From the NCBI GenBank assembly GCA_947601845.1, contig CANQGH010000002.1:1-61208 (forward strand): a stretch of 61,208 nucleotides of DNA, given 5' to 3'. A program made the position numbers and the translations under genes. Below the pieces are notes generated by a model. The model saw nothing but the letters and a program-made list of their open reading frames with translations, had not been told where the DNA came from and did no database searches. Positions within the stretch are counted from its first letter, which is position 1. Every line of letters starts with the position of its first letter. This document shows, one piece after another, positions 19,165-42,555 of the stretch. Source of the DNA: an uncultured Bacilli bacterium (GTDB taxonomy: Bacteria > Bacillota_I > Bacilli_A > RF39 > UBA660).

Positions 19165-19182
19165 AGGAGGAGGGGTGTAATT

Positions 19183-20669: not shown

Positions 20670-20704
20670 AGTTAATATATAGAGTAATATAGGAGGGTTT
20701 GGAA

Positions 20705-21397: not shown

Positions 21398-21418
21398 TAA
21401 GCAACGAGGGTGAGAATT

Positions 21419-22240: not shown

Positions 22241-22253
22241 GGGGGAAAATATA

Positions 22254-23231: not shown

Positions 23232-23241
23232 GAGGGAAAAA

Positions 23242-24186: not shown

Positions 24187-24188
24187 TT

Positions 24189-24699: not shown

Positions 24700-24743
24700 A
24701 GAAAGGAAGGTATCAGTCAAATATTCGATTGGTAGAATGATAT

Positions 24744-26075
24744 ATGAAAGCAGTTATTCAAGCTGGTGGGAAAGGCACTAGAGTTAGTAGTATTACTGGA
24801 GATAAAATCCCTAAACCAATGTTAGAAGTATCTGGATATCCTGTTTTATATCATCAAATTATGAACTTAAAAAAATCAGGTATTACTGATATTATTATAA
24901 TAATCTGTCACCTAGCTAATGTAATAAAAGATTATTTTGGTGATGGTAGTAAAATGGGCGTAAATATATATTATATAGAGGAAGATGAAAATAATCCTCT
25001 TGGGACAGCGGGTGCTCTTTATAATTTAAAAGATAAAATAAGCGATGATTTTATATTTTTATTAGCCGATGTTTTTATAGATATAGACTTTGAAAAAATG
25101 TATAATTTTCATAGAAATAAGAAAGCGGATGTTACTTTATTAACACATCCTAATAGTCATCCATTCGATAGCGATTTAGTTGTTGTTGGCGATGATGATA
25201 AAGTTTTAAAATTTGATAATAAAGATAATGATAGAACTTCTTATAACTACCACAACTTAGTTAATGCTGGTGTTATGATATTTTCACCTAATACTTTAAA
25301 TTATATTGAGAAGTCGAAAAAATATAGTTATGAGAAAGATATTATTTTACCCTCAATAGAAAAAGGAAAAGTATATTCATATAAATCATCTGAGTATGCC
25401 AAAGATATGGGAACTCCTGAAAGATACGAAAATGTTCAAAAAGATTATATTCAACATTTGCCAGAAAAGAAAAATCTCAAAAATAAGCAAAAGTGTATTT
25501 TCTTAGATAGAGATGGAACTATTAATAATTATGTGGGCTTTTTGAGAAAAGAAGAAGAGATGACTTTAATTGACGGGGCATCTTTAGCAATTCGCGAAAT
25601 TAATAATTCAGAGTATTTATGTATAGTCATAACTAATCAACCAGTTATTGCAAGAGGTGAAGTGACTGTTGAAGAGTTAGAAAATATAAATATGAAGATG
25701 GAAAAATTATTAGGGAATGATGGGGCCTATATAAATGGTTTATATTATTGCCCACATCATCCAGATAAAGGTTTTGATGGTGAAGTACCAGAATTGAAAA
25801 TTGATTGCGATTGTCGAAAACCAAAAATTGGTTTATTGGAAAAAGCAGCTAAAGACTTTAATATTGATTTAGAAAAATCTATTGTTATAGGGGATTCAAC
25901 CTTGGATATTAAGATGGCAGAGAATGCAGGAATGACATCCATATTAGTAAAAACTGGTCAAGCAGGTTTAGACAATAAATATGATGTACATCCAACGTAT
26001 GTAGCAAAAGATTTGCTGGATGCTGTAAATAGTTATATAATTAAGAAAGGAGACAAAGAAAATGGAAAATTTTAA
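24744..26075 (+). CDS. Bifunctional D-glycero-alpha-D-manno-heptose 1-phosphate guanylyltransferase / D,D-heptose 1,7-bisphosphate phosphatase
   Basis: The N-terminus QAGGKGTRV...PKPML is nucleotidyltransferase-type. The C-terminal HAD domain IFLDRDGTIN ... CPHHP...CDCRKP ... GDS is GmhB-type, including a Zn site. Confidence 0.8.
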   Translation: MKAVIQAGGKGTRVSSITGDKIPKPMLEVSGYPVLYHQIMNLKKSGITDIIIIICHLANVIKDYFGDGSKMGVNIYYIEEDENNPLGTAGALYNLKDKISDDFIFLLADVFIDIDFEKMYNFHRNKKADVTLLTHPNSHPFDSDLVVVGDDDKVLKFDNKDNDRTSYNYHNLVNAGVMIFSPNTLNYIEKSKKYSYEKDIILPSIEKGKVYSYKSSEYAKDMGTPERYENVQKDYIQHLPEKKNLKNKQKCIFLDRDGTINNYVGFLRKEEEMTLIDGASLAIREINNSEYLCIVITNQPVIARGEVTVEELENINMKMEKLLGNDGAYINGLYYCPHHPDKGFDGEVPELKIDCDCRKPKIGLLEKAAKDFNIDLEKSIVIGDSTLDIKMAENAGMTSILVKTGQAGLDNKYDVHPTYVAKDLLDAVNSYIIKKGDKENGKF

Positions 26076-26661
26076 AGATGCAATTAAACAATATTATGAT
26101 AGGGAAATAAGGGTTATTACTAATTTAAATTTAGATGAAATTAATGAGGCAATGAATGCTATTTATGATACATATAAAAATAATGGAACTATTTATGTGT
26201 GCGGAAATGGTGGTAGTGCAGCAACTGCATCTCATATGCAAAATGATTTTAATAAAGGAATATCTGAATACGTTGATAAAAAGTTTAGATTTTATTGTTT
26301 AAATGATAATTATCCTACTGTTATGGCCATTGCTAATGATATTGGGTATGATGAGATTTTTAGATTTCAATTAATAAATAAAATAAACAAAAATGATTTA
26401 TTTGTTGGCATAAGTGGTTCTGGAAATTCAAAAAATGTTTTAAATGCTGCAGAGTATGCTAAAGAGCAGGGAGCAAAAGTTTTAGGAATTACTGGATATA
26501 AAGGCGGTAAATTAAAAGAACTTGCTGATTATAAAATGCATGTAGATGAGGAAGATATGCAAATAGATGAAGATATTCATATGACTTTTGATCATATGAT
26601 GATGAAAATATTTTATAATTTCTTAGTCAAAAACGAAATTACTGGAAATAATTTAAAATAA
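26062..26661 (+). CDS. gmhA: Sedoheptulose 7-phosphate isomerase (SIS domain)
   Basis: CGNGGSAATASHMQNDF and ISGSGNS motifs; 199 aa; overlaps the upstream gene by 14 nt. Confidence 0.85.
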   Translation: MENFKDAIKQYYDREIRVITNLNLDEINEAMNAIYDTYKNNGTIYVCGNGGSAATASHMQNDFNKGISEYVDKKFRFYCLNDNYPTVMAIANDIGYDEIFRFQLINKINKNDLFVGISGSGNSKNVLNAAEYAKEQGAKVLGITGYKGGKLKELADYKMHVDEEDMQIDEDIHMTFDHMMMKIFYNFLVKNEITGNNLK

Positions 26662-26706
26662 AAATTATACCTTTAATATATTCATGTAAGTAAAAGGGTG
26701 GTAGTG

Positions 26707-27789
26707 ATGGCAAGAGTATTGTATATAATTAATTATTTAAAAAATAGCGGTCCATCTAGAGTTGTTCTTAATTTGTTGAAAACAATAAACAAATCAAAGT
26801 TTGAAGTTTCTATAATTACATTAAAAAATGATGATGATGAAAAAATCATTAACGAATTAAAACAATTGAGTATAGATGTGATACAACTTAAATATTCCAA
26901 TAATAAAGAAATTGTAAAAAATACAACAAAGATAAGAAAGTGTATTAATAGTAAGAATGCCGATATCATACATTCACACGGAATTATTCCAGATTTCATT
27001 ATTTCTAGCGATGTCATATGTGCTAAGAAAATAACAACAATTCATAATAATATGTTTGAAGATTATATACTTTCATATGGTAAATTTAAAGGAAGTTTGA
27101 TGTGTAAAATTCATTTAATCATTTTAAAAAAAATTGATAAGATAGTATGCTGCTCTAAAAGTTCGTATGCTTCATTAGAAAATTGTGTGAAAAATATAAC
27201 ATACATTAGAAATGGTTCAGATATTGACAAAACAACAAATAAAATATTAAGAAAAGATATTGGCATTCCACGTGATGCTTTTGTATATATTTATTGTGGT
27301 GTTTTAACTAAAGGAAAAAGAGTAATAGAACTAATAGATAAATTTAATAATAGTTTAAAAGCAAATGAATATTTGCTGATTTTGGGAAATGGCCCTTTGT
27401 ATGAAGAAGTTATGAAATATTCTAGTGATCATATAAAAGTACTAGGATTTCAAAAAAATGTCATGGATTTTTATAGTATTTCAAATGTATATGTTTCTAA
27501 CTCGAGTTCAGAAGGATTTTCAATGTCGATTATTGAAGCTCTTGGGTGTAATTTGTATTTGTTACTTTCGGATATTCCATCACATAAAGAATGTTTCTTT
27601 ATCGATAATGAAGTTTATTTGGGCGAATATTTTAATGATGATAATTTCTTAGAGAAAAAAAATATTTTAACCGAAAAAATAAAAGTTGAACATAAGGTAT
27701 TGTTGCGTAATTTCCAAGAAAAGTATTTATCTAGTCGTGCAATGACAAATGAATATGAGAGAGAATATAGTTCATTAGTAAGAAAGTAA
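26707..27789 (+). CDS. Glycosyltransferase family 4 (GT-B)
   Basis: C-terminal SSSEGFSMSIIEALGCN (EX7E-type). ATG 26707 follows SD aagggtgg. Confidence 0.75.
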   Translation: MARVLYIINYLKNSGPSRVVLNLLKTINKSKFEVSIITLKNDDDEKIINELKQLSIDVIQLKYSNNKEIVKNTTKIRKCINSKNADIIHSHGIIPDFIISSDVICAKKITTIHNNMFEDYILSYGKFKGSLMCKIHLIILKKIDKIVCCSKSSYASLENCVKNITYIRNGSDIDKTTNKILRKDIGIPRDAFVYIYCGVLTKGKRVIELIDKFNNSLKANEYLLILGNGPLYEEVMKYSSDHIKVLGFQKNVMDFYSISNVYVSNSSSEGFSMSIIEALGCNLYLLLSDIPSHKECFFIDNEVYLGEYFNDDNFLEKKNILTEKIKVEHKVLLRNFQEKYLSSRAMTNEYEREYSSLVRK

Positions 27790-27817
27790 CTCAGCATGAC
27801 TGCATCCTGATATAAAA

Positions 27818-28070
27818 CTGAAATCAATTGTATTTATAATTGTTCCCGTTTACAATGTAAAAAAAAATTTGAATAGATGTGTTAATTCAATAATTAATCA
27901 AAGTTATAAAGATATAGAAAGAATTGCTTGACAAATAATTGTGAAAAAATTTTTGATAATTATAAAAATAATGATGGCTGAATAAAAACAATATACAAGT
28001 AAAATGATGATAGATTACGACAAAATATATAACGAATAAATAAAAATTATAGTATATACATATTAAATAA
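27818..28070 (+). pseudogene. Decayed family-2 glycosyltransferase remnant
   Basis: Translation gives IVFIIVPVYNVKKKFE*, a second frame gives INQSYKDIERIA*, and later comes NYKNNDG*IKTIYK*NDD. This is collinear with the GT2 N-terminus (VPVYNVEKYL..C..SI.NQSYKDIEII..DDGS...I.D.Y...D.RIK.I). There are multiple stops and frameshifts, and the DDGS segment is missing. Confidence 0.65.
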
Positions 28071-28093
28071 AATATTTAGAAAGGATGATTTTT

Positions 28094-29167
28094 TTGAAGA
28101 TTGCTTTATTTATAGGATCACTTACAGGTGGTGGAGCTGAAAGAGTAACAAGTAATTTAGCTAATTATTTAAGTAATATAAAAAATGATGTAACTGTAAT
28201 TACCATGTCTGATTGCAACAAAACATATAATTTAAATAACGAAGTTAATCATTTTAAATTATTAAAAAGTAACGAAAGAAAAAATGTTGTTTTTGATAAT
28301 ATATTAAGATATAAAAGACTAAAACAATATGTTATTGAACATCAGGATATTGATTGTTATATAGTTATGCTTCCTATTACTATTTTTATGTTAACTAAAT
28401 TAAAAAAATACACTAATGCTAAATTAATAATATCCGAGAGAAATAATCCCAAATCATACAAACTATATGAAAAATTAATTATGAAATATGCTCAAAGAAA
28501 ATGTGATGGGTTAGTGGTACAAACTCAAATAATAAAAGATTGGTATAATATTAACAATATTGAAGTGATTCCAAATGCAATTAATAATGAAATATTAATA
28601 AATGAAGAAAGAAAAAATATTAACAATAAAATTGTTGCGGTAGGAAGATTAAATAAACAAAAAAATTATCCAATGATGTTAAAAGCATTTAGTGTTTTTT
28701 CAAAAAAACATCCTGATTATATTTTGGAAATCTATGGTCAAGGTAAATTAGAAAAAAGTTTAAAAAATCTTGCAAAAAAATTGGAAATATCTGATAAAGT
28801 TTTTTTTAAAGGTTATGTTAAAGATGTTAGTGCAAAAATATATAATGCTAAAATGTTTATAATGACTTCAAACTTTGAAGGAATGCCAAATGCGTTAATA
28901 GAAGCAATGTGTTTGGGCTTACCTTGCATTTCAACTGATTGTGATGGTGGTGGCGCTAAAGATTTAATACAAAACATGGGAAATGGCATTTTAATAGGAA
29001 AAAATGATATAAAATCACTTATTAATTCGATGGAAATTCTTTCAAACAATGAAATGTTAGCAAACCAAATTGGTTTAAATGCTAAGAAATTAATAAAAGT
29101 TTTAAATTCTAATACTATTTATAAAAAGTGGTATGAATATATTAAAAAAATAATTAAAGAGGTATGA
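28094..29167 (+). CDS. Glycosyltransferase family 4 (GT-B)
   Basis: IALFIGSLTGGGAERV N-terminus and NFEGMPNALIEAMCLGLPCISTDC motif. TTG 28094 has better SD spacing than ATG 28085; either start is possible. Confidence 0.8.
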   Translation: MKIALFIGSLTGGGAERVTSNLANYLSNIKNDVTVITMSDCNKTYNLNNEVNHFKLLKSNERKNVVFDNILRYKRLKQYVIEHQDIDCYIVMLPITIFMLTKLKKYTNAKLIISERNNPKSYKLYEKLIMKYAQRKCDGLVVQTQIIKDWYNINNIEVIPNAINNEILINEERKNINNKIVAVGRLNKQKNYPMMLKAFSVFSKKHPDYILEIYGQGKLEKSLKNLAKKLEISDKVFFKGYVKDVSAKIYNAKMFIMTSNFEGMPNALIEAMCLGLPCISTDCDGGGAKDLIQNMGNGILIGKNDIKSLINSMEILSNNEMLANQIGLNAKKLIKVLNSNTIYKKWYEYIKKIIKEV

Positions 29168-29168
29168 T

Positions 29169-30473
29169 ATGAAAAAAACTATAAGCATTAAGCAATTAAA
29201 ACAATTATTATTTTTAATAGTAATTATTTTAATAATTTTTCTTACTAAGGTTTTATTGGTTAAAATAAACCCGTTAATTATTGATTTGCTTTTCCTTTTT
29301 ATCTTAATTTTTTTTGGCAAAGAAGAATTATTATATATGTTAGCATTTAGCTTGCCAATTATGGCTTGTTTTGATAATGTAGCTCATATTTTGTTAATAT
29401 ACTTAATATTAGTTTTTATAAAAAGTAAATTTAAAATTAGTTTAAAATATGTATTGGCATCATTGTTTTTTATAATATTGGAATTAATTGCTCATTATTA
29501 TTATAATGTATCAGATGTTAATAGAATGTTAGGTTATCTAACTTGTTTCTTGATTTTTTTGTATATCATAATAGAATTACCACATTGTAATATTAGTTAT
29601 AAAAAATTTTTAAAGATGTATATTTATGGCACTCTTACTTTATTTATCTTTTATCTTTTGACTATTTTTAGTTATTATAAAACAGCTGCATTTGGACTAC
29701 TATTGAATAATGATTTTAGATTAGGATCTTTTGTGCATGGCGATTTTGAATATTTAAGCATTAATATCAATGCTAATACTCTTGCTTTTTATGCATTAAT
29801 AGGAGTGTTTTTGCCTGTAGTGTTGAAAATAATTGATAAAGATTCAAAGAATAGGTTGCTGTATTATTTTACTCCAATTTTTACGGCAATTTTAGGATTT
29901 TTAACAAAATCAAGGAGTTTTATTATAGTGTTTATTTTAGGATTTTTTATAATTATTCTTATTAATTCAAAAACAAAAAAGCAAGTGTTTAATTCAATTA
30001 TTCTGATGTCACTAATTTCAATTATTTTGATAATATTACTAAATTCTAATAATGTAATATTAAAAAGTATAATTGACCGTTTTCATTCTTCAGATATGAG
30101 TACAGCGAGTGGACGTAGTGATTTGTTTAAACTTTATAACGATGCTTTTTTTAACAAAACATCTTACAAATTAATTGGATCCGGAGTTACTGATTATAAA
30201 TTAATTTATAATTTACCTAATTCTGTTCATAATGGTGTGCAACAAGTTTTAATTTCTTATGGATTATTTGGTTTTATAGTTTTTGCAAGTGTACTGATAT
30301 CTCCGATTATCAAGTATAGAAAAGATAAACTTATTTCTTTCGTACCTTTGTTCTTAGCATTTATATTTATTCAAACAATTCAATTATTAAATCCTTATAT
30401 GTTAATGTTTCCATTTGCCATCTGTTATGTAATGTTATATATTAATAATTGTGACAAATCAAAAATAAGGTGA
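29169..30473 (+). CDS. Wzy-type polysaccharide polymerase / O-antigen-ligase-like membrane protein
   Basis: 434 aa with at least 10 predicted TM helices and one larger loop. Located in a Wzx/Wzy locus. Confidence 0.6.
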   Translation: MKKTISIKQLKQLLFLIVIILIIFLTKVLLVKINPLIIDLLFLFILIFFGKEELLYMLAFSLPIMACFDNVAHILLIYLILVFIKSKFKISLKYVLASLFFIILELIAHYYYNVSDVNRMLGYLTCFLIFLYIIIELPHCNISYKKFLKMYIYGTLTLFIFYLLTIFSYYKTAAFGLLLNNDFRLGSFVHGDFEYLSININANTLAFYALIGVFLPVVLKIIDKDSKNRLLYYFTPIFTAILGFLTKSRSFIIVFILGFFIIILINSKTKKQVFNSIILMSLISIILIILLNSNNVILKSIIDRFHSSDMSTASGRSDLFKLYNDAFFNKTSYKLIGSGVTDYKLIYNLPNSVHNGVQQVLISYGLFGFIVFASVLISPIIKYRKDKLISFVPLFLAFIFIQTIQLLNPYMLMFPFAICYVMLYINNCDKSKIR

Positions 30474-30477
30474 TTTT

Positions 30478-31614
30478 ATGAAAAAAATATGTTTTTATAC
30501 AAATTCTATATATACTTTAGGCGGTATTCAAAGAGTAGTTACTGAATTAGCAAATAATTTATATAATGAATATGATATAACTATTGTGTGCCATGATAAC
30601 TCTAAATGGCACAAAAAGTTTAACTATAATTTAAATAAAAATATAAATGTTAAATCATTTAATGAAAAATATTTAATCTTAGATAATATTTTCTTTTTCC
30701 CTGTTAAATGTTTAAAATTTTTAATACGTAAAACTAAAATTAAGAATAAAATTACGGAAAGTATAATGAATTTTGATTATAAGTTTTTGAAAAGAAGGAC
30801 AATTCTTAAATACTTTAATTCCCAAAATTATGATTACATATTAGCAGAGGGTTTAAGTAATTGTATTTATTTGTCAAATTTAAAAGATAAGATACCTTCA
30901 AAAATAATTGGTTGTTGGCATTCGAGTTTTGATAATTATATAAAGCAATCTAGTGAAAAGTACATTATAAAATCTTTAAAGAGCATAGACACTATTGTAC
31001 TATCTAAATATGATGCTGATTTAATAAAAAAAAGATATAATATAGATGTTAAATATATATATAATTTTATTAATGATAATGAAGTGGAGAAATCATCTTT
31101 AAATAATAAATATATGATATCAATTGGAAGATATCATCAAGTAAAAGGGTATGAACGCTTAATAAAGATTTTTAAGAAATTAAATAATAATGAATGGAAA
31201 CTTCTAATAATTGGTGATGGTCCCGAAAAAAACAAGTTAGCTGCACTTATTGATAAATATCATTTAAATAACAATGTAATTTTAACGGGAGGTACCAATA
31301 ATGTTGAAAAATACTATAGACAGGCATCAATATTCTTAATGACATCATATGGAGAAGGGTTTCCAATGGTTATTTTAGAAGCAATGAAATATGGTTTGCC
31401 AATAATTGCTTATGATATACCAGTTTTGCACGAAATATTACCTAGCGAAGATTACATTATTAAGCAAGATGATGAAGAGTCATATGTGAAATTATTGAAA
31501 AAATTATGCGATGATGCAAAATTAAGAGTTAAAAGTGGTCAACTAAATTTAAAAAAATGTGAAAATTTTTATGGTAAAAAGATAATAAGTCAATGGAAAA
31601 ATGTATTAAAATAA
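30478..31614 (+). CDS. Glycosyltransferase family 4 (GT-B)
   Basis: TSYGEGFPMVILEAMKYGLPIIAYD motif. Confidence 0.8.
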   Translation: MKKICFYTNSIYTLGGIQRVVTELANNLYNEYDITIVCHDNSKWHKKFNYNLNKNINVKSFNEKYLILDNIFFFPVKCLKFLIRKTKIKNKITESIMNFDYKFLKRRTILKYFNSQNYDYILAEGLSNCIYLSNLKDKIPSKIIGCWHSSFDNYIKQSSEKYIIKSLKSIDTIVLSKYDADLIKKRYNIDVKYIYNFINDNEVEKSSLNNKYMISIGRYHQVKGYERLIKIFKKLNNNEWKLLIIGDGPEKNKLAALIDKYHLNNNVILTGGTNNVEKYYRQASIFLMTSYGEGFPMVILEAMKYGLPIIAYDIPVLHEILPSEDYIIKQDDEESYVKLLKKLCDDAKLRVKSGQLNLKKCENFYGKKIISQWKNVLK

Positions 31615-31638
31615 AAAATAGTTTTTAAAGGAGGTAAA

Positions 31639-32565
31639 ATGCAAAAATATTTTATAATTACAATAGATACTGAGGCAGATAATCAATGGAATAATAATCA
31701 AGCTTGTACGACTAAAAATTCTAAATATTTGCCAAGATTTCAGGAACTCGCTGAAAAATATAATTTTAAACCAGTTTGGTTAACAACTTACGAAATGGCA
31801 AATGATAATTTTTTTGTTAATTATTTTAAAGATAAATGTAACAAGGGTCTTTGTGAAATAGGAATGCACTTACATGCGTGGAACAATCCTCCTGAATATA
31901 ATTTGGTAAATAAGACTAATGAAAGATCATATCTGATTGAATATCCAAAAAATATAATGGAACAAAAAATAAAAGTATTAGATGAATTATTGACTAAAAA
32001 AATTGGTATAAAACCTGTTTCACACCGCGCTGGAAGATGGACAACTAATGAAGACTATTTTGAGTTACTTGAAAAATATGGATATAAAGTTGATTGTTCA
32101 GTTACACCTCATATATCATGGGAAAATCATTTGGGGCAAAGCGGTATTAAGGGTAGTAATTATAGTAACAGTCCAGAGAATCCTTATTTTATAAAAAATA
32201 AACTTTTAGAAGTTCCTGTAACAATAAGAATAATGCATAATATACAATTTGATCAAATTAAAAATATAAGAAATGCTGCGGGGGAATTATTTCACTTTTT
32301 AAAAGGTAGAACAGAATGGGTTCGCCCAAATAAAAATATGAATAAAAAGGGGATATTGAAATTAATTAAAAAGTGTAATAAGCATAATGATTACATTATG
32401 TTTATGTTACATTCTTCAGAATTAATGCCCAATGGCAGTCCAAATTTTTCAACTTATGAAAGTGTTGAACATTTATATACATTAATCGAAGAAATATTTC
32501 GTTATATTAGTAATTTGGGTTATACAGGGATTACTTTAAATGAATTTTATGAGAAGGTGAAATAA
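31639..32565 (+). CDS. Polysaccharide deacetylase-like (WalW-type) protein
   Basis: N-terminus FIITIDTEADNQW and HLHAW/HRAGRW histidine motifs resemble WalW-type CE4-like proteins. Recognised by pattern only. Confidence 0.45.
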   Translation: MQKYFIITIDTEADNQWNNNQACTTKNSKYLPRFQELAEKYNFKPVWLTTYEMANDNFFVNYFKDKCNKGLCEIGMHLHAWNNPPEYNLVNKTNERSYLIEYPKNIMEQKIKVLDELLTKKIGIKPVSHRAGRWTTNEDYFELLEKYGYKVDCSVTPHISWENHLGQSGIKGSNYSNSPENPYFIKNKLLEVPVTIRIMHNIQFDQIKNIRNAAGELFHFLKGRTEWVRPNKNMNKKGILKLIKKCNKHNDYIMFMLHSSELMPNGSPNFSTYESVEHLYTLIEEIFRYISNLGYTGITLNEFYEKVK

Positions 32566-33645
32566 ATGAATAAAATAGGGATAATAACATATCACAATAC
32601 AATAAACTATGGAGCCTTATTGCAATCATTTGCTTTAGAATCAAAGTTAAAAGAATTAGGTGCTGATGTTGATATTATTAATTATCATTGTAAAAATGTT
32701 GAAGATAGAGAACATGTAAAATTTCCATCATTTGAGCTTAATATTATTAATTTTTTGAAAAATATAAAATATTATTTCAGCACCACAAAAAAAAGAAAAG
32801 CAATGAACAATTTTTTAAATAAATATATTAAAATTTCTAAACAAGAATACAATATAAAAAATATAAAAAATAGCAATGATTTATATGATAAATTTGTGGT
32901 TGGATCCGATATGGTTTTTGAATTAAATATTAATGGTGGTGATTTAACATATTACCTTGATTTTGCGGATTCCAAAAAAAGATATTCATATGCCGCAAGT
33001 TTAGGCATAGATAAAATTGATAATAAATATTTATCAAATTGTATAAATGAGTTGGAAAAATTTCAACATTTATCCGTTAGAGAAGAACAAGCAAAAGAAT
33101 ATTTTGGCAAGATATTAAAAAACAAGGTCTATGTGGATGTGGATCCGACTTTATTATATGATAAATTTTTTTGGCAAAAATATGAAGAAAAGCCCAAAGA
33201 CAAAATAAATAGAAAATATATGTTATTATATTTCCTAAATGAAACTATGCCTGAATTTAACATTGCTAGAGAAATTGCCGAAAAAAATAATTGGGATATA
33301 TATGTTTTGTCTAATAGTAAAGAAAAAATAAACGGGTGTAAAGTTATATATAATGCCTCAGTAGGTGAGTTTTTATATTATATTCATAATGCTGCGTTAG
33401 TATTAACGGCATCATATCATGGCATGATTTTTTCAATAAACTATAATACTAATTTTATGTATTTTTGTAAGAAAAAAGATGCATCTAGGTTAGATAATAT
33501 TGCAATTTTAACAGGATTAACTAATAGGAAATTAACGGAAACAAATTTGCCTGAAATACAATGCGATTTTGATAATGCCAATAAAGTTATTAGTAAACTC
33601 CGCAATAAATCAATAGATTATTTAAAAACACTAGTAGATGAATAA
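32566..33645 (+). CDS. Polysaccharide pyruvyl transferase
   Basis: KIGIITYHNTINYGALLQSFAL N-terminus and ASYHGMIFS near the C-terminus are typical of the WcaK/CsaB-type family. Confidence 0.7.
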   Translation: MNKIGIITYHNTINYGALLQSFALESKLKELGADVDIINYHCKNVEDREHVKFPSFELNIINFLKNIKYYFSTTKKRKAMNNFLNKYIKISKQEYNIKNIKNSNDLYDKFVVGSDMVFELNINGGDLTYYLDFADSKKRYSYAASLGIDKIDNKYLSNCINELEKFQHLSVREEQAKEYFGKILKNKVYVDVDPTLLYDKFFWQKYEEKPKDKINRKYMLLYFLNETMPEFNIAREIAEKNNWDIYVLSNSKEKINGCKVIYNASVGEFLYYIHNAALVLTASYHGMIFSINYNTNFMYFCKKKDASRLDNIAILTGLTNRKLTETNLPEIQCDFDNANKVISKLRNKSIDYLKTLVDE

Positions 33646-33660
33646 TAAATAGGAGGAGAT

Positions 33661-35190
33661 ATGAAACAAAACACTAGAACTGAAAATGCAATAAAAAATA
33701 CTAGAATAACAATATTATGTCATATTGTGTTTTTGGTGTGTTCCTTTATTTGTAGAACAGTATTAACTAAAAAACTTGGTGCTGAATATTTAGGAATAGG
33801 TGGACTTTTTTCAAATATATTAACAATTTTATCATTTGCAGAATTAGGTTTAGGTAGTACACTTGTTTATAGATTATATAAACCTTTTACTAATAATGAT
33901 TATGAAAAGATTAGTTTATATGTTAAACTTTATAAAAAAATATACAATATTATTATTATCATTATTTTTGGCGCGGGGTTATTATTAATACCTTTTTTAA
34001 AATATTTGGTTGTAGCACCAAATGTTAAAGAAAATTTAGTTTTATTGTATTTATTATATTTATCTCAAACTTTGGCCTCTTATTTATTTGTTTATAAAAA
34101 AACATTGCTTACTGCTGATCAAAAAGATTATATTGTCAGTTTATTTAATGAGACATTCAATGTTATTATGAATATTTTTCAATGTTTTATATTAATATTC
34201 TTTCAAAACTATATTTGGTATTTAGTTATATCTATTGTTTGTATAATTTTGAACAACTTTTTTTGCTCAATTTATGTAGATAAAAAATACAAGTTTTTAA
34301 AAAATGAAGTTAAAGGTTCATTAAATAAAGAAGAAATTAATGATTTAAAGAAAGATACTAAAGGATTATTAATGACCAAGGTTGCAAGCACTGCTTTTAG
34401 CGGAACAGATAATATATTTATTTCTTCATTTATAGGTATTGAATATGTTGGAATTTTATCCAATTATACTTTAATATTAACGACTGTTAATGGATTAATA
34501 AATAAAATATTTTCTTCAATTACCGCATCAGTAGGTAATTTGATTGTTTCTAAAAATAGTGAAGAAAAAGCAGAATCTGTTTTATTTAAAATGTTTTTTA
34601 TCAATGCGAGTTTATACACATATATATGCAATGGGTTATTACTATTAATTACTGAATTTGTAACAAAATATTGGTTAAATAATGATTATTTTTTAGCAAG
34701 TCCAATTGTGGTATTATCAATTTTAGAGTTATATTTTAGGGCCATTCATTATCCCATTTACATAACTAGAAATGCATATGGTTTATTTTCACAGTATAGA
34801 ATTATATTTGTGATAGCAGCTATACTTAACATTTTTTTAGATTTTATTCTTGTAAAACCATTAGGAATAGCAGGCTTAATTATAGCTACTATATTTTGTC
34901 GTGGAATAACGGCTTTTACGGATATTTATGTTTTATATAGATATGGATTTAAGAAAAAAATTGATAATTATATATTAAAGATAGTCAAATGGTTTTTATT
35001 TTTTGGTTTATGTTATATAATATCTTATTCTCTTTTTACAGTAATTACTAAAATGAACTTTTTCTTATTTATAGTTAAAATTGTTATTTTTACTATTATC
35101 TATGTAATTATTTTCTGGTTATATTTTCACAATTGTGATGAGTTTAAGTATTGTATATCTTTGATTAAAAACAGAATTAAAAAAAATTAG
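33661..35190 (+). CDS. wzx: Wzx-type oligosaccharide flippase (MOP superfamily)
   Basis: 509 aa with about 14 TM helices. N-terminus NTRITILCHIVFLVCSFICRTVLTKKLGAEYLGIGGLFSNIL is typical of polysaccharide biosynthesis flippases. Confidence 0.8.
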   Translation: MKQNTRTENAIKNTRITILCHIVFLVCSFICRTVLTKKLGAEYLGIGGLFSNILTILSFAELGLGSTLVYRLYKPFTNNDYEKISLYVKLYKKIYNIIIIIIFGAGLLLIPFLKYLVVAPNVKENLVLLYLLYLSQTLASYLFVYKKTLLTADQKDYIVSLFNETFNVIMNIFQCFILIFFQNYIWYLVISIVCIILNNFFCSIYVDKKYKFLKNEVKGSLNKEEINDLKKDTKGLLMTKVASTAFSGTDNIFISSFIGIEYVGILSNYTLILTTVNGLINKIFSSITASVGNLIVSKNSEEKAESVLFKMFFINASLYTYICNGLLLLITEFVTKYWLNNDYFLASPIVVLSILELYFRAIHYPIYITRNAYGLFSQYRIIFVIAAILNIFLDFILVKPLGIAGLIIATIFCRGITAFTDIYVLYRYGFKKKIDNYILKIVKWFLFFGLCYIISYSLFTVITKMNFFLFIVKIVIFTIIYVIIFWLYFHNCDEFKYCISLIKNRIKKN

Positions 35191-35244
35191 ACTATTAAAA
35201 TTAATAAATGTGTGATAAAATTTAAAAATAGTTTGGAGGATTAA

Positions 35245-36234
35245 ATGAAAAAAATTAAAGCGTTGATTAAGAAAATGTTCCCATTTGCTTATAAAATATA
35301 TAATAATAAAATTGGAAAAAACAGAGTATTGAAAGAGTACAAACAATTTAAATCATATTATAATGATTCATCTGATAATATAAATAATATTGGATACAAA
35401 ATAATTGTTTTAGAACATAGTTTAGAAAAAGCTATGACAAGTAATAATCCAAGATATTTTGGAATTGAAAAAGTAAATAGTATCATAAAATATTTAGATA
35501 TGTATGATATCAAAAAATATAACAAAGATTTTGCTTATAATATTGGTATTAGTATATTACATTCATATTGTGAGTTTTATGAAAAACATAATTGGATAAA
35601 TAGAGATGAATATAATAATGTAAAAATATTCTTAAAAGGTAAGAATGCCCAAATAACTTCGGGATGCATGGAAATAAAAAAAGAATATATAGAAAATAAC
35701 AACAAAATTGATTATGAGCGTTTTTTAAAATCTAGACACGCAATTAGAACGTTTGATAAAAAAAGAGTTGATCCTGAGATAGTAAAAAAAGCTGCGATGA
35801 TTTCTCAATACAGTCCAACTGCATGCAATAGACAAATGATTAAAATATACCACATTATTGATGAAGATAAAAGGAACAGATTGATTAATTTTTTACACGG
35901 ATTAACTAATTTTGAAACTGAAAATTCAAACTTTATTCTATTTACTTATGGTTTATCTGCCTTTGATGAAAACGAATTTAAACAGGGAATGCTTAATTCT
36001 GGATTAGTGGCAATGAATTTCGTTAACGCATTACATTCTATGAATATAGGGAGTTGTTTTTTAGAGTTTAATAATAGTTTAGAAGAAGAATGCGAAATTA
36101 AGAAAATATTAAATATACCTTCAAATGAGAAAATTGCAATATCATTAGTTATAGGATATTATCCCCAAAAAGCTATAATACCCTGTAGTACAAGAAAAAG
36201 TATCAATGAAGTGTATAAAGAGATTAATGATTGA
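35245..36234 (+). CDS. Nitroreductase-family protein
   Basis: SRHAIRTFDKKRVDPEIVKKAAMISQYSPTACNRQ is the nitroreductase FMN-binding N-motif. Confidence 0.65.
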   Translation: MKKIKALIKKMFPFAYKIYNNKIGKNRVLKEYKQFKSYYNDSSDNINNIGYKIIVLEHSLEKAMTSNNPRYFGIEKVNSIIKYLDMYDIKKYNKDFAYNIGISILHSYCEFYEKHNWINRDEYNNVKIFLKGKNAQITSGCMEIKKEYIENNNKIDYERFLKSRHAIRTFDKKRVDPEIVKKAAMISQYSPTACNRQMIKIYHIIDEDKRNRLINFLHGLTNFETENSNFILFTYGLSAFDENEFKQGMLNSGLVAMNFVNALHSMNIGSCFLEFNNSLEEECEIKKILNIPSNEKIAISLVIGYYPQKAIIPCSTRKSINEVYKEIND

Positions 36235-36275
36235 ATTTAATTAATATATTATTAAGAAAATAAGAGGGTAATTAT

Positions 36276-37325
36276 ATGAAGACGAAAGTAAATTTAAATA
36301 ATAAAACAATTTTAGTTACAGGTAGTGCTGGGTTTATTGGTTATTATCTAACTAAAAGATTATTAGAAGAAATAAAAGAAGTAAAAGTAATTGGGCTCGA
36401 TTCAGTTAACGATTATTATGATGTTTCATTGAAAGAATGGAGATTAAAACAATTAGAAAATTATCAAAACTTTATTTTTATTAAAGGCAATCTAGCTGAT
36501 AAAGAATTAATCAATAAAATATTTGCTGATTATAAGCCAAATATTGTAGTTAATCTAGCTGCTCAAGCCGGAGTTAGGTATTCAATAGATCATCCAGATG
36601 TCTATATTGAATCAAATATTATTGGTTTTTATAACATTCTAGAGGCTTGTCGTTATAATCCAGTAGAACACTTAGTATATGCTTCATCTAGTTCTGTATA
36701 TGGCGGGAATACTAAAGTACCATTTAGTACTGAAGATAAAGTAGATAATCCTGTATCACTTTATGCAGCAACTAAAAAAAGTAATGAACTATTAGCTCAT
36801 TGCTATTCCAAACTCTATAATATACCAAGTACAGGTTTAAGATTTTTTACAGTATATGGTCCCGCAGGTAGACCCGATATGGCTTATTTTGGGTTCACTA
36901 ATAAATTAATTAATAATGAAACAATAAAAATATTTAATTATGGCAATTGTAAAAGAGATTTTACTTACATTGATGATATAGTAGAAGGAATAATTAGAAT
37001 AATGCAAGGAGCACCAACAAAAGTTAATGGTGAAGATGGCTTACCAATTTCTCCATATGCAGTATATAATATTGGTAATTCAAATCCAGAAAATTTATTA
37101 GACTTTGTCCAAATATTACAAGAAGAACTGATAAGAGCAGGTGTACTATCTAAAGATTATGATTTTGAAAGTCATAAAGAATTAGTTGCAATGCAAGCAG
37201 GTGATGTTCCGGTAACTTATGCAGATACTACGCCTTTAGAAAGAGATTTTGGATTTAAACCTAGTACATCTTTAAGAGAAGGATTAAGAAAATTTGCCGA
37301 ATGGTATAAAGAATTTTATATGTAA
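36276..37325 (+). CDS. UDP-glucuronate 4-epimerase (SDR)
   Basis: VTGSAGFIGYYL, LAAQAGVRYS, YASSSSVYG, LYAATKKSNELLAH, GLRFFTVYGPAGRPDMA and RDFTYIDDIV match the Cap1J/LpsL-type family closely. Confidence 0.85.
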   Translation: MKTKVNLNNKTILVTGSAGFIGYYLTKRLLEEIKEVKVIGLDSVNDYYDVSLKEWRLKQLENYQNFIFIKGNLADKELINKIFADYKPNIVVNLAAQAGVRYSIDHPDVYIESNIIGFYNILEACRYNPVEHLVYASSSSVYGGNTKVPFSTEDKVDNPVSLYAATKKSNELLAHCYSKLYNIPSTGLRFFTVYGPAGRPDMAYFGFTNKLINNETIKIFNYGNCKRDFTYIDDIVEGIIRIMQGAPTKVNGEDGLPISPYAVYNIGNSNPENLLDFVQILQEELIRAGVLSKDYDFESHKELVAMQAGDVPVTYADTTPLERDFGFKPSTSLREGLRKFAEWYKEFYM

Positions 37326-37494
37326 CATGAATCAAAAGTTGTTTTAAAAGTTGTTTTAAAATTAGTTTATAATGAATAATTATTACAAAACAATTTAAAA
37401 ATTTAATTCATTTTATGATTAGCAATAAATGCAGAAAATAATTAATTTTGTACTATAGGGTAACAAAATATTTAATAGGAGAGGTGTTTTAAAT

Positions 37495-38460
37495 ATGTCG
37501 GATATTATAGTAAAGAAAAATAAGTATTACGATAAGGCGAAGCCTTTAGTTTCAATATGTACCCCAGTATACAATAGAATAAATACGATACAGCGAACTT
37601 TTGATTCTATTATTAATCAAGATTATAAATCTTTTGAATACATAATAGTTGATGATGGTTCTACTGATGGAGTCGAGAAAATAATTAATAAATTTATGAA
37701 TTATGTTGATTTTCCTTGTATATATATACATAAAGACAATGGTGGAGTACATACTGCTAGAAATTTAGCAGTTAAGTTTGCACGTGGAAAATATTTTACT
37801 AATATAGATAGTGATGATGAATTTTTGCCTAATGCAATATCTACTTTTGTTAAAGCTTGGGATAGCATACCTAAAGATAAAATAGGTGAATATCGTGAAA
37901 TAGTTGCTCTTTGTGTAGATGATAATAATAATATTCTCGGTAATAAGTTTCCAGATAACATAAATCAGTTAGATATGAAGAAAGCACAAAAATTGTGTGA
38001 TGCTACTGGTGGCGAGCATATCAGTATGGATTTGACAAAAATAAGAAAAGAAAATTTATTCCCAGAACCAAAAGGAGTAAAAATGGTGATGGAGAATATT
38101 TTATGGCGTAAATTATATGTTAAATACAGATCGTATTATATCAATGAGCCACTAAGGATTTACCATAGATATGGTGATGATCATTTGAGCAATATAAAGA
38201 AAAAAAATATCCAAACTATTGTGAATATTTTATATAATGCACAAGAATATTTAAACAATGATAAGATATACATTTATTCTTTTAAAGAAAGAATAATGAC
38301 GATTACAAGATATTTAATTTCTAGGAATATAGTTAAAAAATCAAATACGAAAGTTTATTTTGATTATAGTATTAAGAATAAAAAAAATCAATTTTTAATT
38401 ATATTGTTATACGTACCTTGTTTATTTGGTACTTATTTGTACAAGAAAAAGAAAATGTAA
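37495..38460 (+). CDS. Glycosyltransferase family 2
   Basis: VSICTPVYNRINTIQRTFDSIINQDYKSFEYIIVDDGSTDG ... DSDDEF. Confidence 0.85.
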   Translation: MSDIIVKKNKYYDKAKPLVSICTPVYNRINTIQRTFDSIINQDYKSFEYIIVDDGSTDGVEKIINKFMNYVDFPCIYIHKDNGGVHTARNLAVKFARGKYFTNIDSDDEFLPNAISTFVKAWDSIPKDKIGEYREIVALCVDDNNNILGNKFPDNINQLDMKKAQKLCDATGGEHISMDLTKIRKENLFPEPKGVKMVMENILWRKLYVKYRSYYINEPLRIYHRYGDDHLSNIKKKNIQTIVNILYNAQEYLNNDKIYIYSFKERIMTITRYLISRNIVKKSNTKVYFDYSIKNKKNQFLIILLYVPCLFGTYLYKKKKM

Positions 38461-38500
38461 AATTTTAAAGATTATAATTTTACATAAGAAATAGTTGATT

Positions 38501-38622
38501 GTGATGTACCGGTTATATATGAAGATACTAGTGTATTAAAATATGATTATGGCTTTAAACATAATATATCATTAAGAGAAAGGTTAAGAAAATTTGCCAC
38601 ACGGGATAAAGAATTTTATATG
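38501..38622 (+). pseudogene. Relic copy of the last ~122 nt of the UDP-glucuronate epimerase gene
   Basis: 38501-38622 is collinear with 37201-37322, at roughly three-quarters identity by eye. It translates DVPVIYEDTSVLKYDYGFKHNISLRERLRKFATRDKEFYM, compared with DVPVTYADTTPLERDFGFKPSTSLREGLRKFAEWYKEFYM. Confidence 0.8.
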
Positions 38623-38638
38623 AAAGGAAGGAAAACAA

Positions 38639-39157
38639 ATGATAAAAAAAATAATATATAAATTTAAATATTATACTTGTAGCTTTGAAAAACGAGCAGA
38701 ATATCTTAGGGGGGGGGGTGTAAAAATTGGATCAAATAGTGAAATCTATCCAAATGTTAGTTTTGGATCAGAACCCTATTTGATTGAATTAGGAGATAAT
38801 GTTAGAATTGCTTCTAATTGTGTTTTAACGACACATGATGGTGGATTATGGGTTTTGAGAAATAATGGAAAACTTCCAAATTCAGATAAATTTGGCAAGA
38901 TTAAAGTTGGAAATAATGTTCATATAGGAATTAATACTATTATTATGCCAGGAGTAACAATCGGTGATAATGTTGTAATTGGAGCAGGTGCAGTAGTAAC
39001 AAAAGACTTACCTTCAAATAGTGTTGCTGTTGGTGTACCGGCAAGGGTAATTGAAACAATTGATGATTATTATGAAAAAAATAAGAATAAAGTTGTTTAT
39101 ACCAAAAATATGAATTTTGATGAAAAAAAAGATTATATCCAAAAGAACCTTAAATGA
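38639..39157 (+). CDS. Hexapeptide-repeat O-acetyltransferase (maltose/galactoside acetyltransferase-like) carrying a G10 tract
   Basis: LbH repeats IGNNVHIGINTIIMPGVTIGDNVVIGAGAVV. The G10 tract at codons 24-27 (RGGG) is in frame. Confidence 0.85.
   Translation: MIKKIIYKFKYYTCSFEKRAEYLRGGGVKIGSNSEIYPNVSFGSEPYLIELGDNVRIASNCVLTTHDGGLWVLRNNGKLPNSDKFGKIKVGNNVHIGINTIIMPGVTIGDNVVIGAGAVVTKDLPSNSVAVGVPARVIETIDDYYEKNKNKVVYTKNMNFDEKKDYIQKNLK
38709..38718 (+). repeat. Homopolymeric G10 tract near the 5' end of the acetyltransferase gene
   Basis: Ten consecutive G counted directly. Confidence 0.9.
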
Positions 39158-39183
39158 TTACAAAGGAATAGGAGAATATAATA

Positions 39184-40353
39184 ATGAAAATAGCAGTAGC
39201 AGGAACTGGATATGTAGGTTTATCTTTAGCTACATTATTAAGTCAAACAAACGAGGTAGTAGCATTAGATGTAATACCTGAGAAGGTGGAAATGATTAAC
39301 AATAGAATTTCACCAATTAAAGATAAAGAAATAGAAGAATATTTTGCAACTAAAGAATTAAACTTAAGAGCTACATTAGATTATGTAGAAGCATTTAAAG
39401 ATGCTAAATATGTAATAATATCTACTCCAACAAATTATGATGAAGAATTAAATTTCTTTGATACTTCATCTGTTGAAGATATTATTGAAAAAGTGATTAG
39501 TATGGGATCAAGTGATACTACAATGGTAGTTAAATCTACTATACCAGTAGGGTTTATTGAAAATATGAAAAAGAAATATAATATTAATAATATTTTGTTT
39601 TCACCTGAGTTCTTAAGAGAAGGTAAGGCTTTATATGATAATTTATATCCATCTAGGATTGTGGTAGGAGAAAAATCAGAAAGAGCTGTTGAGTTTGCTA
39701 ATTTATTAAAACAAGCATCTTTAAAAGAAGATGTTGTCATTAAATATATGAATTCTACGGAAGCTGAGGCCGTAAAATTATTTGCAAATACATACTTAGC
39801 TTTGCGAGTTTCATATTTTAACGAATTGGATACTTATGCCGAATTAAAAGGATTGAATACTAAGGATATTATTGAAGGAGTATGCCTAGACCCTAGAATA
39901 GGCGATCACTATAATAATCCATCCTTCGGATATGGTGGATATTGTCTTCCTAAAGACACCAAACAATTGTTAGCTAATTATAAGGATGTACCTGAAAATT
40001 TAATAGAGGCTATTGTAAAAGCTAATGACACAAGAAAAGATCATATTACAAATATGATTTTAAAGACAAAGCCAAGAGTAGTTGGTATATATAGACTTAC
40101 TATGAAGACTGGTTCTGATAATTTTAGAGCAAGTGCCATTCAAGGTATAATAGATAGGTTGAAAATGTATGATATTGAAGTTGTTATTTATGAGCCAACG
40201 TTAAAAACAAATACTTTTAATGATTACCGAGTAATTGAAGATTTCAATGAGTTTGCATCTATTACCGATGTGGTTCTAGCTAATAGGATGGATGAAGAAT
40301 TAAGCTGTATTAGTGATAAGGTATATACAAGAGATTTATATTCACGAGATTAA
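39184..40353 (+). CDS. ugd: UDP-glucose 6-dehydrogenase
   Basis: [36 protein letters not shown], and catalytic [10 protein letters not shown]. Confidence 0.92.
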
Positions 40354-40394
40354 AAAATAGCAAAAATTGGTAATTTTTATAGAAAGGAAATCAT

Positions 40395-40889
40395 ATGAAA
40401 TTTTTAAAATCTAAAGCATTTAGTTGGATTTTAGTTATTCTTTGGATGATAGTTATCTTTTGGCTATCATCTATGTCGGGAGTAGAATCAGAGACTAAGA
40501 GTAAAGGAATGATTAGTAATTTTGTAGAAACAACTATTGACAAGACTAATGATTTAGGTATCACTGATAAACATTTATCTAGTGATAAACTAGAGACCAT
40601 TACCAATGAATTAAATTATCCATTAAGAAAATTTATGCATGCTGGGGTTTACTTAGTCCTTTCTATATTAGTCTTAAATGCTTTTTATCGAAGTGACATA
40701 AATAATAGAAAATATTTACTTGCTATCTTATTTTGTTTTATTTACGCGTGTACTGATGAGTTTCATCAATTATTTGTAGGAAGAACAGGACAGTTTTTAG
40801 ATGTTTTAATAGATACATTAGGAGCAATTATTGGTTGTTTTGTATATTATATTATAACTAGAAGACATAAAACTCATTCTTTTAGGTAA
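40395..40889 (+). CDS. VanZ-family membrane protein
   Basis: Four TM segments with HAGVY and TDEFHQLFVGRTGQFLDVLIDTLGA motifs. Confidence 0.8.
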   Translation: MKFLKSKAFSWILVILWMIVIFWLSSMSGVESETKSKGMISNFVETTIDKTNDLGITDKHLSSDKLETITNELNYPLRKFMHAGVYLVLSILVLNAFYRSDINNRKYLLAILFCFIYACTDEFHQLFVGRTGQFLDVLIDTLGAIIGCFVYYIITRRHKTHSFR

Positions 40890-40929
40890 ACTATTAATGT
40901 AGTTTTCTGAAAAGCTGTTAGGAGGAGAA

Positions 40930-41043
40930 ATGTTTAGTAATTTAATTATGCTAACAACGGGAGTTATAGTCGTTTCCTTTGATATACTTTTTGTATACTG
41001 CTCTTTAGTAGTTGCAAGTATGGCTGATAATGAATATTATTAG
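40930..41043 (+). CDS. Candidate 37-aa hydrophobic small protein (not in the ORF track)
   Basis: Strong SD aggagg (40920-40925) 4 nt before the ATG. Sequence is MFSNLIMLTTGVIVVSFDILFVYCSLVVASMADNEYY: one TM helix and an acidic tail. A T-run follows the stop. Confidence 0.4.
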   Translation: MFSNLIMLTTGVIVVSFDILFVYCSLVVASMADNEYY

Positions 41044-41121
41044 TCTTTTTTTATGTAGTTATGCTATAATATATTAGATATTTGTTAACTTATTGTTACT
41101 AAATAATGAAAGGATAAGACT

Positions 41122-42555
41122 ATGAAATTTTTAAATAAACGTGATGATTTTAACAATATTTTATTTATTATTATTTGTCTAATATCCTTATGCTTATTTA
41201 GTTATTACATAATAATTTTAGATATATTTCCTAAAAAATATTTAATAGGTGGATACATAATTATAGCAATACTTATTTTTTCATCACTAGTTTTTATGTA
41301 TTTTAGTGGAAAGAAAACATTTAAAATTAAGGGGTATTATCCAATAGCTATTTTTTCATTCATTCTTTTATATACTACTTTTTACTTACATAATACTTAT
41401 TATTTTTTAGACAATGCTAGTAGTAGTCAAGATAATAATTTAAAATATTCTGTCGTAACTTTAAAGGTTAATTCGTATCAACAGCTTGAAGATTTGAATG
41501 GGAAAAAAATTAGTTATTTTGATGATGATTATTCTAGTAATGTTAAAGACCAATTGGAAGATGTTATTTCTTATCAGGAAGTTTTAGCTAATAATATTGG
41601 AACTTTAGCTGATAATTTGCTAGAAAAAAATGTTGATGCATTATGCGTAGAAGATAATTCTTTAGATTTAATAAAAGAAGAAGTTTATGGTTTTGATGAT
41701 AGGGTTAAAACAGTTTCCCAGATAGAAATTAAAACCAATAAAGAAAATAATTTACTTAGGATAGATAATATAACTAGCAAAAATCAAGATCAATTTATTT
41801 TGTATATTAGTGGTATTGATCAGTATGGTAATGTCAATAGTATTATTGGCCGAAGTGATGTCAATATTTTAGCTGTTGTTAATATGAAGACTAATCATAT
41901 TTTACTTGTTAATACTCCAAGAGATTATTATGTTCAATTAGCTGGTACTCAAGGCTTAAAAGATAAACTTACCCATGCTGGTATTTATGGTATTGAGGAA
42001 AGCGTTAATACTTTAGAAAACTTATATGATATTAATATAGATTACTATGTAAAAGTTAATTTTAATACCCTTATTAATGTAGTTGATGTAGTAGGGGGAA
42101 TTGATATATATTCTGATACTTCTTTTGGACCTATATATCGAGGTTGGAATCATCTAAATGGTGAAAAAGCTTTAACTTATTCTAGAGAAAGGCATGCTTA
42201 TGCTTCAGGTGATAATCATAGGGGTGCTAATCAACAACAAGTAATTACTGCTATTATTAATAAGATAACTAACTCAACGGTATTAATCAGTAATTACAAT
42301 CATATTTTATCTACTCTTGATGGTAGTTTTCAAACCAATATGCCTAGATATAGAACAACTAGTTTTCTTCGTTATCAGTTAGATACAATGGCTAATTGGA
42401 AAATAGAAAGCATTGCAGTAACTGGATATAATAGTATGAATTATACTTATAGTATGGGTACCAATTATTTATTATATGTTATGGAACCTAATTTAGATAG
42501 TATAGCTAGCGCTAAAAAGAAGATAAATGAAATATTAGTTGAAAGGTTAGTATGA
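41122..42555 (+). CDS. LCP (LytR-CpsA-Psr) family glycopolymer phosphotransferase, copy 1
   Basis: N-terminal TM region. Catalytic domain motifs RSDVNILAVVN, VNTPRDYYV, LTHAGIYG, VNFNTLINVVDVVGGIDI and YSRERHAYASGDNHRGANQQQV. Confidence 0.9.
   Translation: MKFLNKRDDFNNILFIIICLISLCLFSYYIIILDIFPKKYLIGGYIIIAILIFSSLVFMYFSGKKTFKIKGYYPIAIFSFILLYTTFYLHNTYYFLDNASSSQDNNLKYSVVTLKVNSYQQLEDLNGKKISYFDDDYSSNVKDQLEDVISYQEVLANNIGTLADNLLEKNVDALCVEDNSLDLIKEEVYGFDDRVKTVSQIEIKTNKENNLLRIDNITSKNQDQFILYISGIDQYGNVNSIIGRSDVNILAVVNMKTNHILLVNTPRDYYVQLAGTQGLKDKLTHAGIYGIEESVNTLENLYDINIDYYVKVNFNTLINVVDVVGGIDIYSDTSFGPIYRGWNHLNGEKALTYSRERHAYASGDNHRGANQQQVITAIINKITNSTVLISNYNHILSTLDGSFQTNMPRYRTTSFLRYQLDTMANWKIESIAVTGYNSMNYTYSMGTNYLLYVMEPNLDSIASAKKKINEILVERLV

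Follow-up and report, generated by a model that had tools for sequence, protein, structure and literature searches.

A predicted poly-G ON/OFF switch in an acetyltransferase gene of a capsule locus from an uncultured gut Bacillota bacterium

Results

The Polysaccharide Locus and Its Host

The stretch of DNA analyzed here (61,208 nucleotides, 27.3% GC, in the following termed the window) stems from a rabbit gut metagenome. According to Pfam scans, it carries a Wzx/Wzy-type locus for capsule or exopolysaccharide (EPS) formation, the genes of which are all located on the plus strand (18490..42555). The locus starts with genes for Wzz, a CpsD-like kinase, a CpsB phosphatase and an initiating sugar transferase and continues with genes for glycosyltransferases, a GHMP kinase, an epimerase and a first acetyltransferase that is interrupted by a run of nine G (G9). 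The third part encodes an NTP-transferase/HAD protein and a SIS protein, which belong to a heptose-type pathway, and is followed by genes for GT4 enzymes, Wzy, a flippase-like protein, a nitroreductase-like protein and a further epimerase. Genes for a GT2 enzyme, a second acetyltransferase containing a run of ten G (G10), UDP-glucose dehydrogenase, VanZ and LCP form the end of the locus. All close homologues of the second acetyltransferase that were examined likewise reside in polysaccharide loci.

Two features of the gene inventory deserve mention in their own right. Between positions 22254 and 26661, the genes for the GHMP kinase, the NTP-transferase/HAD fusion and the GmhA-like SIS protein flank the G9 acetyltransferase gene, such that a heptose-type nucleotide-sugar pathway is present within a capsule locus of the Gram-positive type, an arrangement that recalls the heptose modules of Campylobacter capsule loci. 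In addition, the gene for a nitroreductase-family protein of 329 aa (35245-36234) separates the flippase-like gene from the epimerase gene.

The host belongs to an uncultured low-GC lineage of the Bacillota. A SpoIID gene is present in the window, and the nearest named relatives of a TmcAL-like housekeeping protein, with identities of 63-70%, are metagenome-assembled genomes (MAGs) labeled 'Bacilli bacterium' or 'Firmicutes bacterium.'

The second acetyltransferase gene is part of a cassette with recognizable edges. On the left, directly upstream of the gene, lies a diverged duplicate (38501..38622, plus strand) of the 3' end of the epimerase gene (37201-37322); in a Logan contig, positions 38568-38622 align once more at a site roughly 1.29 kb further upstream, with 1237 letters between the two pieces. 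On the right, the edge is formed by the gene for UDP-glucose 6-dehydrogenase, ugd (39184..40353, plus strand), which begins 27 nt downstream of the acetyltransferase gene and was assigned on the basis of Pfam and of NCBIfam model PRK15057 (E 3.9e-177). In runs X5 and X6, which stem from two other samples, contigs match the window without a difference over the initial 258-317 nt of ugd, divergence setting in precisely upstream of position 39184, so that the acetyltransferase gene is considered an accessory gene in a strain-specific part of the locus. In the X6 contig, the tail of the epimerase gene (38597) appears to be joined straight to position 39183, a tentative observation given the low likeness. 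The strain-specific placement fits a non-essential decoration gene. With regard to transcription, no terminator-like site was detected between positions 37200 and 41200 and promoter-like matches occurred at chance level (36 vs. 31.4 ± 5.8), so that co-transcription is plausible at most.

The Acetyltransferase Gene and Its Product

The gene under study (38639..39157, plus strand) is intact, starts with ATG and encodes a LacA/Maa/WbbJ-like sugar O-acetyltransferase of 172 aa that contains hexapeptide repeats and is predicted to adopt the left-handed beta-helix (LbH) fold. The letters AAGGAAGG are found 7 nt upstream of the start codon and were read from the sequence as the Shine-Dalgarno-like element AAAGGAAGG (38623..38631, plus strand). 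Tandem hexapeptide repeats, the hallmark of the LbH family, were recognized by two Pfam profiles, PF00132 (Hexapep, E 3.5e-17) and PF14602 (E 2.5e-11), both of which exceeded the gathering score. Similarity to the catalytic core of structurally solved O-acetyltransferases is evident from matches to LacA (PDB 1kqa, E 1.2e-22, residues 24-144), Maa (3srt, E 4.4e-20) and SACOL2570 from Staphylococcus aureus (E 1.2e-18), and a distant match was obtained with a phase-variable polysialic-acid O-acetyltransferase (3jqy, E 1.2e-9).

Orthology with any of the named enzymes was rejected. All NCBIfam scores remained far under the respective equivalog cut-offs (LacA, 88.6 vs. 347; WbbJ, 83 vs. 243; Maa, 60.3 vs. 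314; WcaF, 43.6 vs. 326), which leaves the protein within the LbH O-acetyltransferase superfamily but outside the orthologue groups of LacA, WbbJ, Maa and WcaF. LacA, Maa and WbbJ resemble the protein in that they are its best sequence matches and share the predicted beta-helix core, whereas the protein studied here differs by a short two-helix N-terminus, the absence of a Mac domain and its setting in a capsule locus.

An AF2 model built with 27 homologues (pLDDT 91.2, pTM 0.83) features two N-terminal helices comprising residues 2-13 and 16-25, followed by regularly spaced short beta strands. Histidine 66 is located within an invariant T-H-D-G-G motif, is conserved in 27/27 aligned homologues and is a candidate for the catalytic histidine of a putative acetyl-CoA-dependent sugar O-acetylation.

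The G10 Tract and Its Reading Frame

Ten consecutive G are present on the plus strand at positions 38709..38718. They span codons 24-27 of the acetyltransferase gene (CTT AGG GGG GGG GGT, corresponding to L23 R24 G25 G26 G27), the frame is open and the gene is in the ON state. In the AF2 model, these codons correspond to the end of helix 16-25, just ahead of the beta-helix core. When the length of the tract was changed in silico, only 27 aa were left of the product with G9 and 33 aa with G11; the full-length protein was retained with G7, G10 or G13. These results agree with the first-pass annotation of this DNA, in which the tract had been placed at the same codons, called ON and predicted to truncate the protein upon any slip by one nucleotide. 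The same holds for two further statements made there: the assignment of the gene to an LbH O-acetyltransferase of a polysaccharide locus, which is borne out by Pfam, the PDB matches and the locus content, and the presence of a second, out-of-frame poly-G tract in the other acetyltransferase gene of the locus, which is indeed found as G9 at positions 24467-24475.

The outcome of the in silico changes bears on a reading in which polymerase slippage or ribosomal frameshifting at the tract sets the enzyme yield or generates an alternative product at the RNA level, with no heritable change. As a general point, transcriptional slippage is possible at long homopolymers. On the other hand, reading in either alternative frame ends within 0-6 further codons (27 or 33 aa in all) and yields nothing recognizable, RNA slippage could only lower the yield since the frame is already open in the DNA, and length differences at comparable tracts are present in DNA assemblies, as detailed below. 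Recoding is therefore very improbable as an explanation and was rejected.

Run Lengths and Codon Usage

Given its base composition, the window should contain about 0.005 G runs of nine or more nucleotides; two are observed. The spectrum of run lengths falls smoothly to ten runs of G5 and three of C5, G or C runs of 6-8 nucleotides do not occur at all, and the only G/C runs longer than five are one G9 and one G10. Both of these are located on the coding strand of the two LbH acetyltransferase genes of the locus, which together account for approximately 1 kb of 61 kb. A survey of 253 kb of low-GC loci surrounding homologues yielded just two G/C runs longer than seven, the G10 tract itself and a tract in a mouse-gut isolate (L004) that is described below. 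In the 49 open reading frames of the window, GGG accounts for 9.3% of the glycine codons and AGG for 12.4% of the arginine codons, and from this codon usage the probability of encountering AGG-GGG-GGG, given the residues R-G-G, is about 0.001.

The G10 run is not a product of chance. It shows three of the features commonly expected of contingency genes: a homopolymer of about eight or more units within the reading frame or promoter, an early stop upon change by one unit with in-frame lengths recurring every three, and over-representation of the repeat relative to composition and codon usage.

Origin of the Tract Among Homologues

In the best 120 homologues, none of which is more than 78% identical, the site reads L-R-x-x-G. 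The residues equivalent to R24 and G27 show almost no variation; the two positions in between are variable (KK in 18 cases, KQ in 9, KM in 8, KS in 6, and others); among these sequences, two glycines at x-x are found exclusively in the G10 protein and a homopolymer was detected at the site in none of the homologues. An alignment of 27 homologues contains no indel at this site, and both flanks correspond residue for residue in one frame. For the closest homologues, P0003, P0004 and P0008, the DNA at the site reads CGT TTG AGT GGC, CGT TTA CAA GGA and AGA AAA AGT GGA, and a G tract is present in none of the three. Three matches of truncated appearance (P0030, P0078 and P0085) were also inspected for a poly-G signature, with negative result. 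Given the L-R-x-x-G pattern with its variable x-x and without a homopolymer, the run must have arisen by several substitutions at tolerant linker positions. Judged from this comparison, it is a derived feature, built by substitutions at two tolerant positions together with synonymous choices of rare codons.

Such a history could in principle also be that of a fixed, essentially neutral homopolymer that originated by drift or was imported with the cassette, in which case the gene would simply be ON and slips would represent ordinary loss-of-function mutations. Such a run might shift frame now and then, as any G10 does, but would neither be kept as a switch nor play a part at the population level. 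That the tract is common to no relative agrees with this view, as does the location of the gene in a strain-specific cassette absent from other strains. Furthermore, P0105 (59% identical) has I-G-G-G-I at the site, encoded by the mixed codons GGT GGG GGA, so that three glycines are tolerated there and, as such, need no special explanation. What a neutral run does not readily account for is the need for several substitutions into rare codons, with the low probability given above even when the residues are taken as granted, and the lack of G/C runs of intermediate length in a window that contains two long ones, both in acetyltransferase genes of the same locus. Taking into account the rare codons, the two replaced variable residues and the missing runs of 6-8, the G10 tract appears selected rather than accidental, and we consider a neutral origin unlikely, albeit clearly worth keeping in view.

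In the first-pass annotation, homologues that encode the three glycines by mixed codons and lack a homopolymer had been named as a finding that would speak against a switch. Formally, this was encountered, given that the homologues have no homopolymer and that one of them, P0105, uses mixed codons. It is not accepted as a refutation, since the homologues are at most 78% identical and belong to other species, and since a contingency tract is, as a rule, confined to its lineage. Tracts of this kind are, moreover, typically built by substitutions at tolerant positions and rare synonymous codons.

Tract Length in the Available Assemblies

According to the run index, the acetyltransferase gene with its tract is present in only four sequencing runs (X1-X4), all of them from one rabbit-gut sample. 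The Logan assemblies of these runs contain an unbroken contig of 29,098 nt (ERR10663677_11094; depth about 29) that has G10 and zero differences in 4/4 runs, and G10 is also present in the assembly of this sample at ENA (ERZ27249221). In one population, G10 is thus the majority state, with the qualification that assembled contigs report the majority length of a tract and hide minority lengths. The finding of G10 in every assembly that covers the tract is a further point in favor of a fixed, neutral run.

Homopolymers are error-prone, and the data stem from a metagenome assembly with a depth of about 18-29x. Accordingly, an assembly or sequencing artefact has to be considered, in which the true length differs from ten or the run reflects poly-G produced by two-color chemistry. 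The tract is, however, located in the middle of contigs (29 kb and 62 kb), the same length was obtained by two assemblers and from four separately assembled runs, its flanks share one frame and align with homologues without indel, and the pattern is unlike that of poly-G artefacts at read ends. A length artefact was rejected on these grounds and is so improbable that it can practically be disregarded.

Look-ups with the exact sequences of the acetyltransferase and of the adjoining GT2 protein returned contigs from the same sample only. Near-identical acetyltransferase products, whether full-length or truncated, were not found among 5.8 billion protein clusters, and a search of JGI metagenomes for the flank pattern with a gap of variable size gave no match. 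It should be noted that an empty contig alignment of a run over a given stretch is no proof of absence: in the alignments of runs X1 and X4, their own 29-kb contig was missed with 38300-39500 at a likeness of 85 and shown with 38560-38900 at a likeness of 95.

A look-up with ugd retrieved one additional contig (L092) from a second sample of the study (ERZ27249400). It corresponds to window positions 38834-40815, begins 116 nt past the tract and represents a strain diverged by about 1%. There are 20 mismatches in the 1658 nt after the acetyltransferase stop codon, comprising ugd, vanZ and spacers, and none within the final 324 nt of the acetyltransferase gene. As far as can be judged from this distribution, it hints at recent sharing of the cassette between strains.

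The Companion Gene and Length Variation in Related Tracts

The companion gene (24189..24699, plus strand) encodes a CysE/EpsC-like LbH acetyltransferase and is frameshifted, i.e., in the OFF state. With G9, translation stops after 105 aa; G8 or G11 would yield proteins of 169 or 170 aa. Low-depth fragments covering this gene were found in runs X15-X17, one of them ending exactly at the tract. Two relatives carry a tract at the same codon: L093 (91% aa identity) has an in-frame G9 (540-548), and L094 (82% aa identity), which is located in a syntenic heptose locus, has G10 (3224-3233) and encodes a truncated product of 106 aa. The G9 tract of the companion gene has hence been kept across diverged relatives, whereas the G10 tract is absent from the closest homologues.

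Length variation was also observed in a mouse-gut isolate genome labeled Lachnospiraceae (L004). In its locus, which has a GC content of 27.5%, a homologue of the G10 protein (65% identical; 5938-6469) is split into two open reading frames by G8 (6148-6155) at the T-H-D-G-G motif, and shortening to G7 would restore the sequence ...THDGGVWTLRN.... Across 16 public runs, which were drawn from many studies, this tract was G8 in 13, G7, i.e., in frame, in two and G6 in one; its length was the sole polymorphism over about 600 nt and toggles the frame. The tract of L004 looks like a length-variable ON/OFF element that is mostly OFF. A further case is provided by an uncultured organism with 52% GC (L001), in which another LbH acetyltransferase gene (6539-7090) follows directly downstream of the homologue and contains an in-frame G9 (6580-6588) at codons about 14-17, within the sequence SVGGGYS.

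That comparable acetyltransferase tracts of other gut bacteria differ in length and state is not what would be expected of neutral, fixed runs. The polymorphism in L004 and the presence of an in-frame G9 in one and of a truncating G10 in the other relative of the companion gene favor a switch as indirect support.

Comparison With Known Switches

The gene class and the position of the tract match those of known contingency genes for capsule modification (PMC8355987; PMC555961, as presented in PMC9558356). The capsule locus of Campylobacter jejuni includes the poly-G contingency genes cj1421c and cj1422c for MeOPN transferases and cj1426c for a methyltransferase. For G8-G11 tracts in its capsule-modifying genes, switching rates lie between 1e-4 and 1.6e-3 per division, and the lack of functional mismatch repair helps tract switching (PMC8355987). 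Resemblance to the locus studied here extends to the intragenic position of the poly-G tract, the low-GC genome, the non-essential nature of the capsule-decorating gene and its location in a variable part of the locus, the presence of several independent tracts per locus and of heptose-pathway genes; the ON/OFF frameshift itself has been demonstrated in C. jejuni and is predicted here. Differences concern the host, a commensal of the Bacillota and of Gram-positive type, the Wzx/Wzy-type locus and the type of enzyme, an LbH O-acetyltransferase.

The repeat of NeuO is a heptanucleotide and not a homopolymer. NeuO is the phase-variable polysialic-acid O-acetyltransferase of Escherichia coli K1 and is encoded on prophage CUS-3 (Deszo et al., 2005, PMC555961, as presented in PMC9558356). 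Both NeuO and the G10 protein belong to the cytoplasmic LbH capsule O-acetyltransferases, and in both cases the repeat, which in NeuO switches translation, is situated near the 5' end of a gene on an accessory carrier. They are distant in sequence, as is apparent from the 3jqy match, and differ in substrate, and the gene studied here has a mononucleotide run in place of a 5' heptanucleotide array and resides in a chromosomal capsule locus, between the GT2 gene and ugd, instead of on a prophage. Membership in the NeuO type was rejected since both repeat type and carrier differ.

For the capsule O-acetyltransferase genes oatC and oatWY of Neisseria meningitidis, slipped-strand switching at homopolymeric tracts was reportedly described by Claus et al. 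in 2004. A structure of OatWY (PMC2782042) is cited in PMC4553322. As predicted here, capsule O-acetylation in this organism is toggled by indels in an intragenic homopolymer, and OatWY is an LbH enzyme; N. meningitidis differs in being a Gram-negative pathogen with a sialic-acid capsule and ABC-type export. In Streptococcus pneumoniae serotypes 15B/15C, slippage in a (TA)n repeat of wciZ switches an O-acetyltransferase and thereby changes the serotype. This system shares with the present one the Gram-positive Wzx/Wzy capsule locus and the repeat within an O-acetyltransferase gene, but the repeat is a dinucleotide and WciZ is a membrane acyltransferase of the AT3 type, not an LbH protein.

Discussion

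Taken together, we assign a probability of roughly 0.6 to the reading that the G10 tract is a slipped-strand ON/OFF translational switch that is currently ON, switching being a prediction from the sequence. Slipped-strand mispairing during replication would cause G10 to gain or lose one G. With the resulting G11 or G9, the frame would shift, translation would end after 33 or 27 residues, respectively, and the enzyme would be lost; a second slip at the tract would restore the acetyltransferase. When produced, the cytoplasmic LbH O-acetyltransferase would decorate the repeat unit of the Wzx/Wzy-dependent capsule or exopolysaccharide, and the population would be split into cells with and cells without acetylated polysaccharide. 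The G9 tract is placed independently, and if both tracts switch, as many as four decoration states could arise, so that four surface states are plausible. Switching may proceed at a rate useful in the host and may affect phages or host immunity. The case would thus represent a known type of switch, the poly-G contingency gene, predicted here in an added gene.

Phase variation mediated by SSRs is textbook knowledge for Campylobacter, Neisseria and Haemophilus. In the literature searched, no report was found on SSR- or poly-G-based phase variation in commensal gut Clostridia, Lachnospiraceae or Bacilli. It is tempting to see poly-G tracts in genes for cytoplasmic LbH acetyltransferases as a recurrent, convergent 'decoration switchboard' of gut commensal Bacillota, a generalization that we put forward tentatively, rating its chances at slightly less than even. 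The tracts are placed differently, at codons 24-27 in the G10 gene, at the THDGG motif in L004 and at codons about 14-17 in the neighboring gene of L001, which would argue that such tracts arose de novo repeatedly, under selection for a capsule acetylation that can be switched. Such selection would probably be driven by phages or host IgA.

If the tract switches, a commensal bacterium varies the acetylation of its capsule stochastically, with up to four surface states when the second tract is included, and phage adsorption, recognition by IgA and persistence of strains in the gut would be affected. Single consensus genomes or MAGs would then mis-state surface chemistry, and the designations 'pseudogene' and 'intact' may describe momentary states of one and the same gene. 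Each well-documented case helps to reveal how general this strategy is, and the locus described here would be a predicted example of it.
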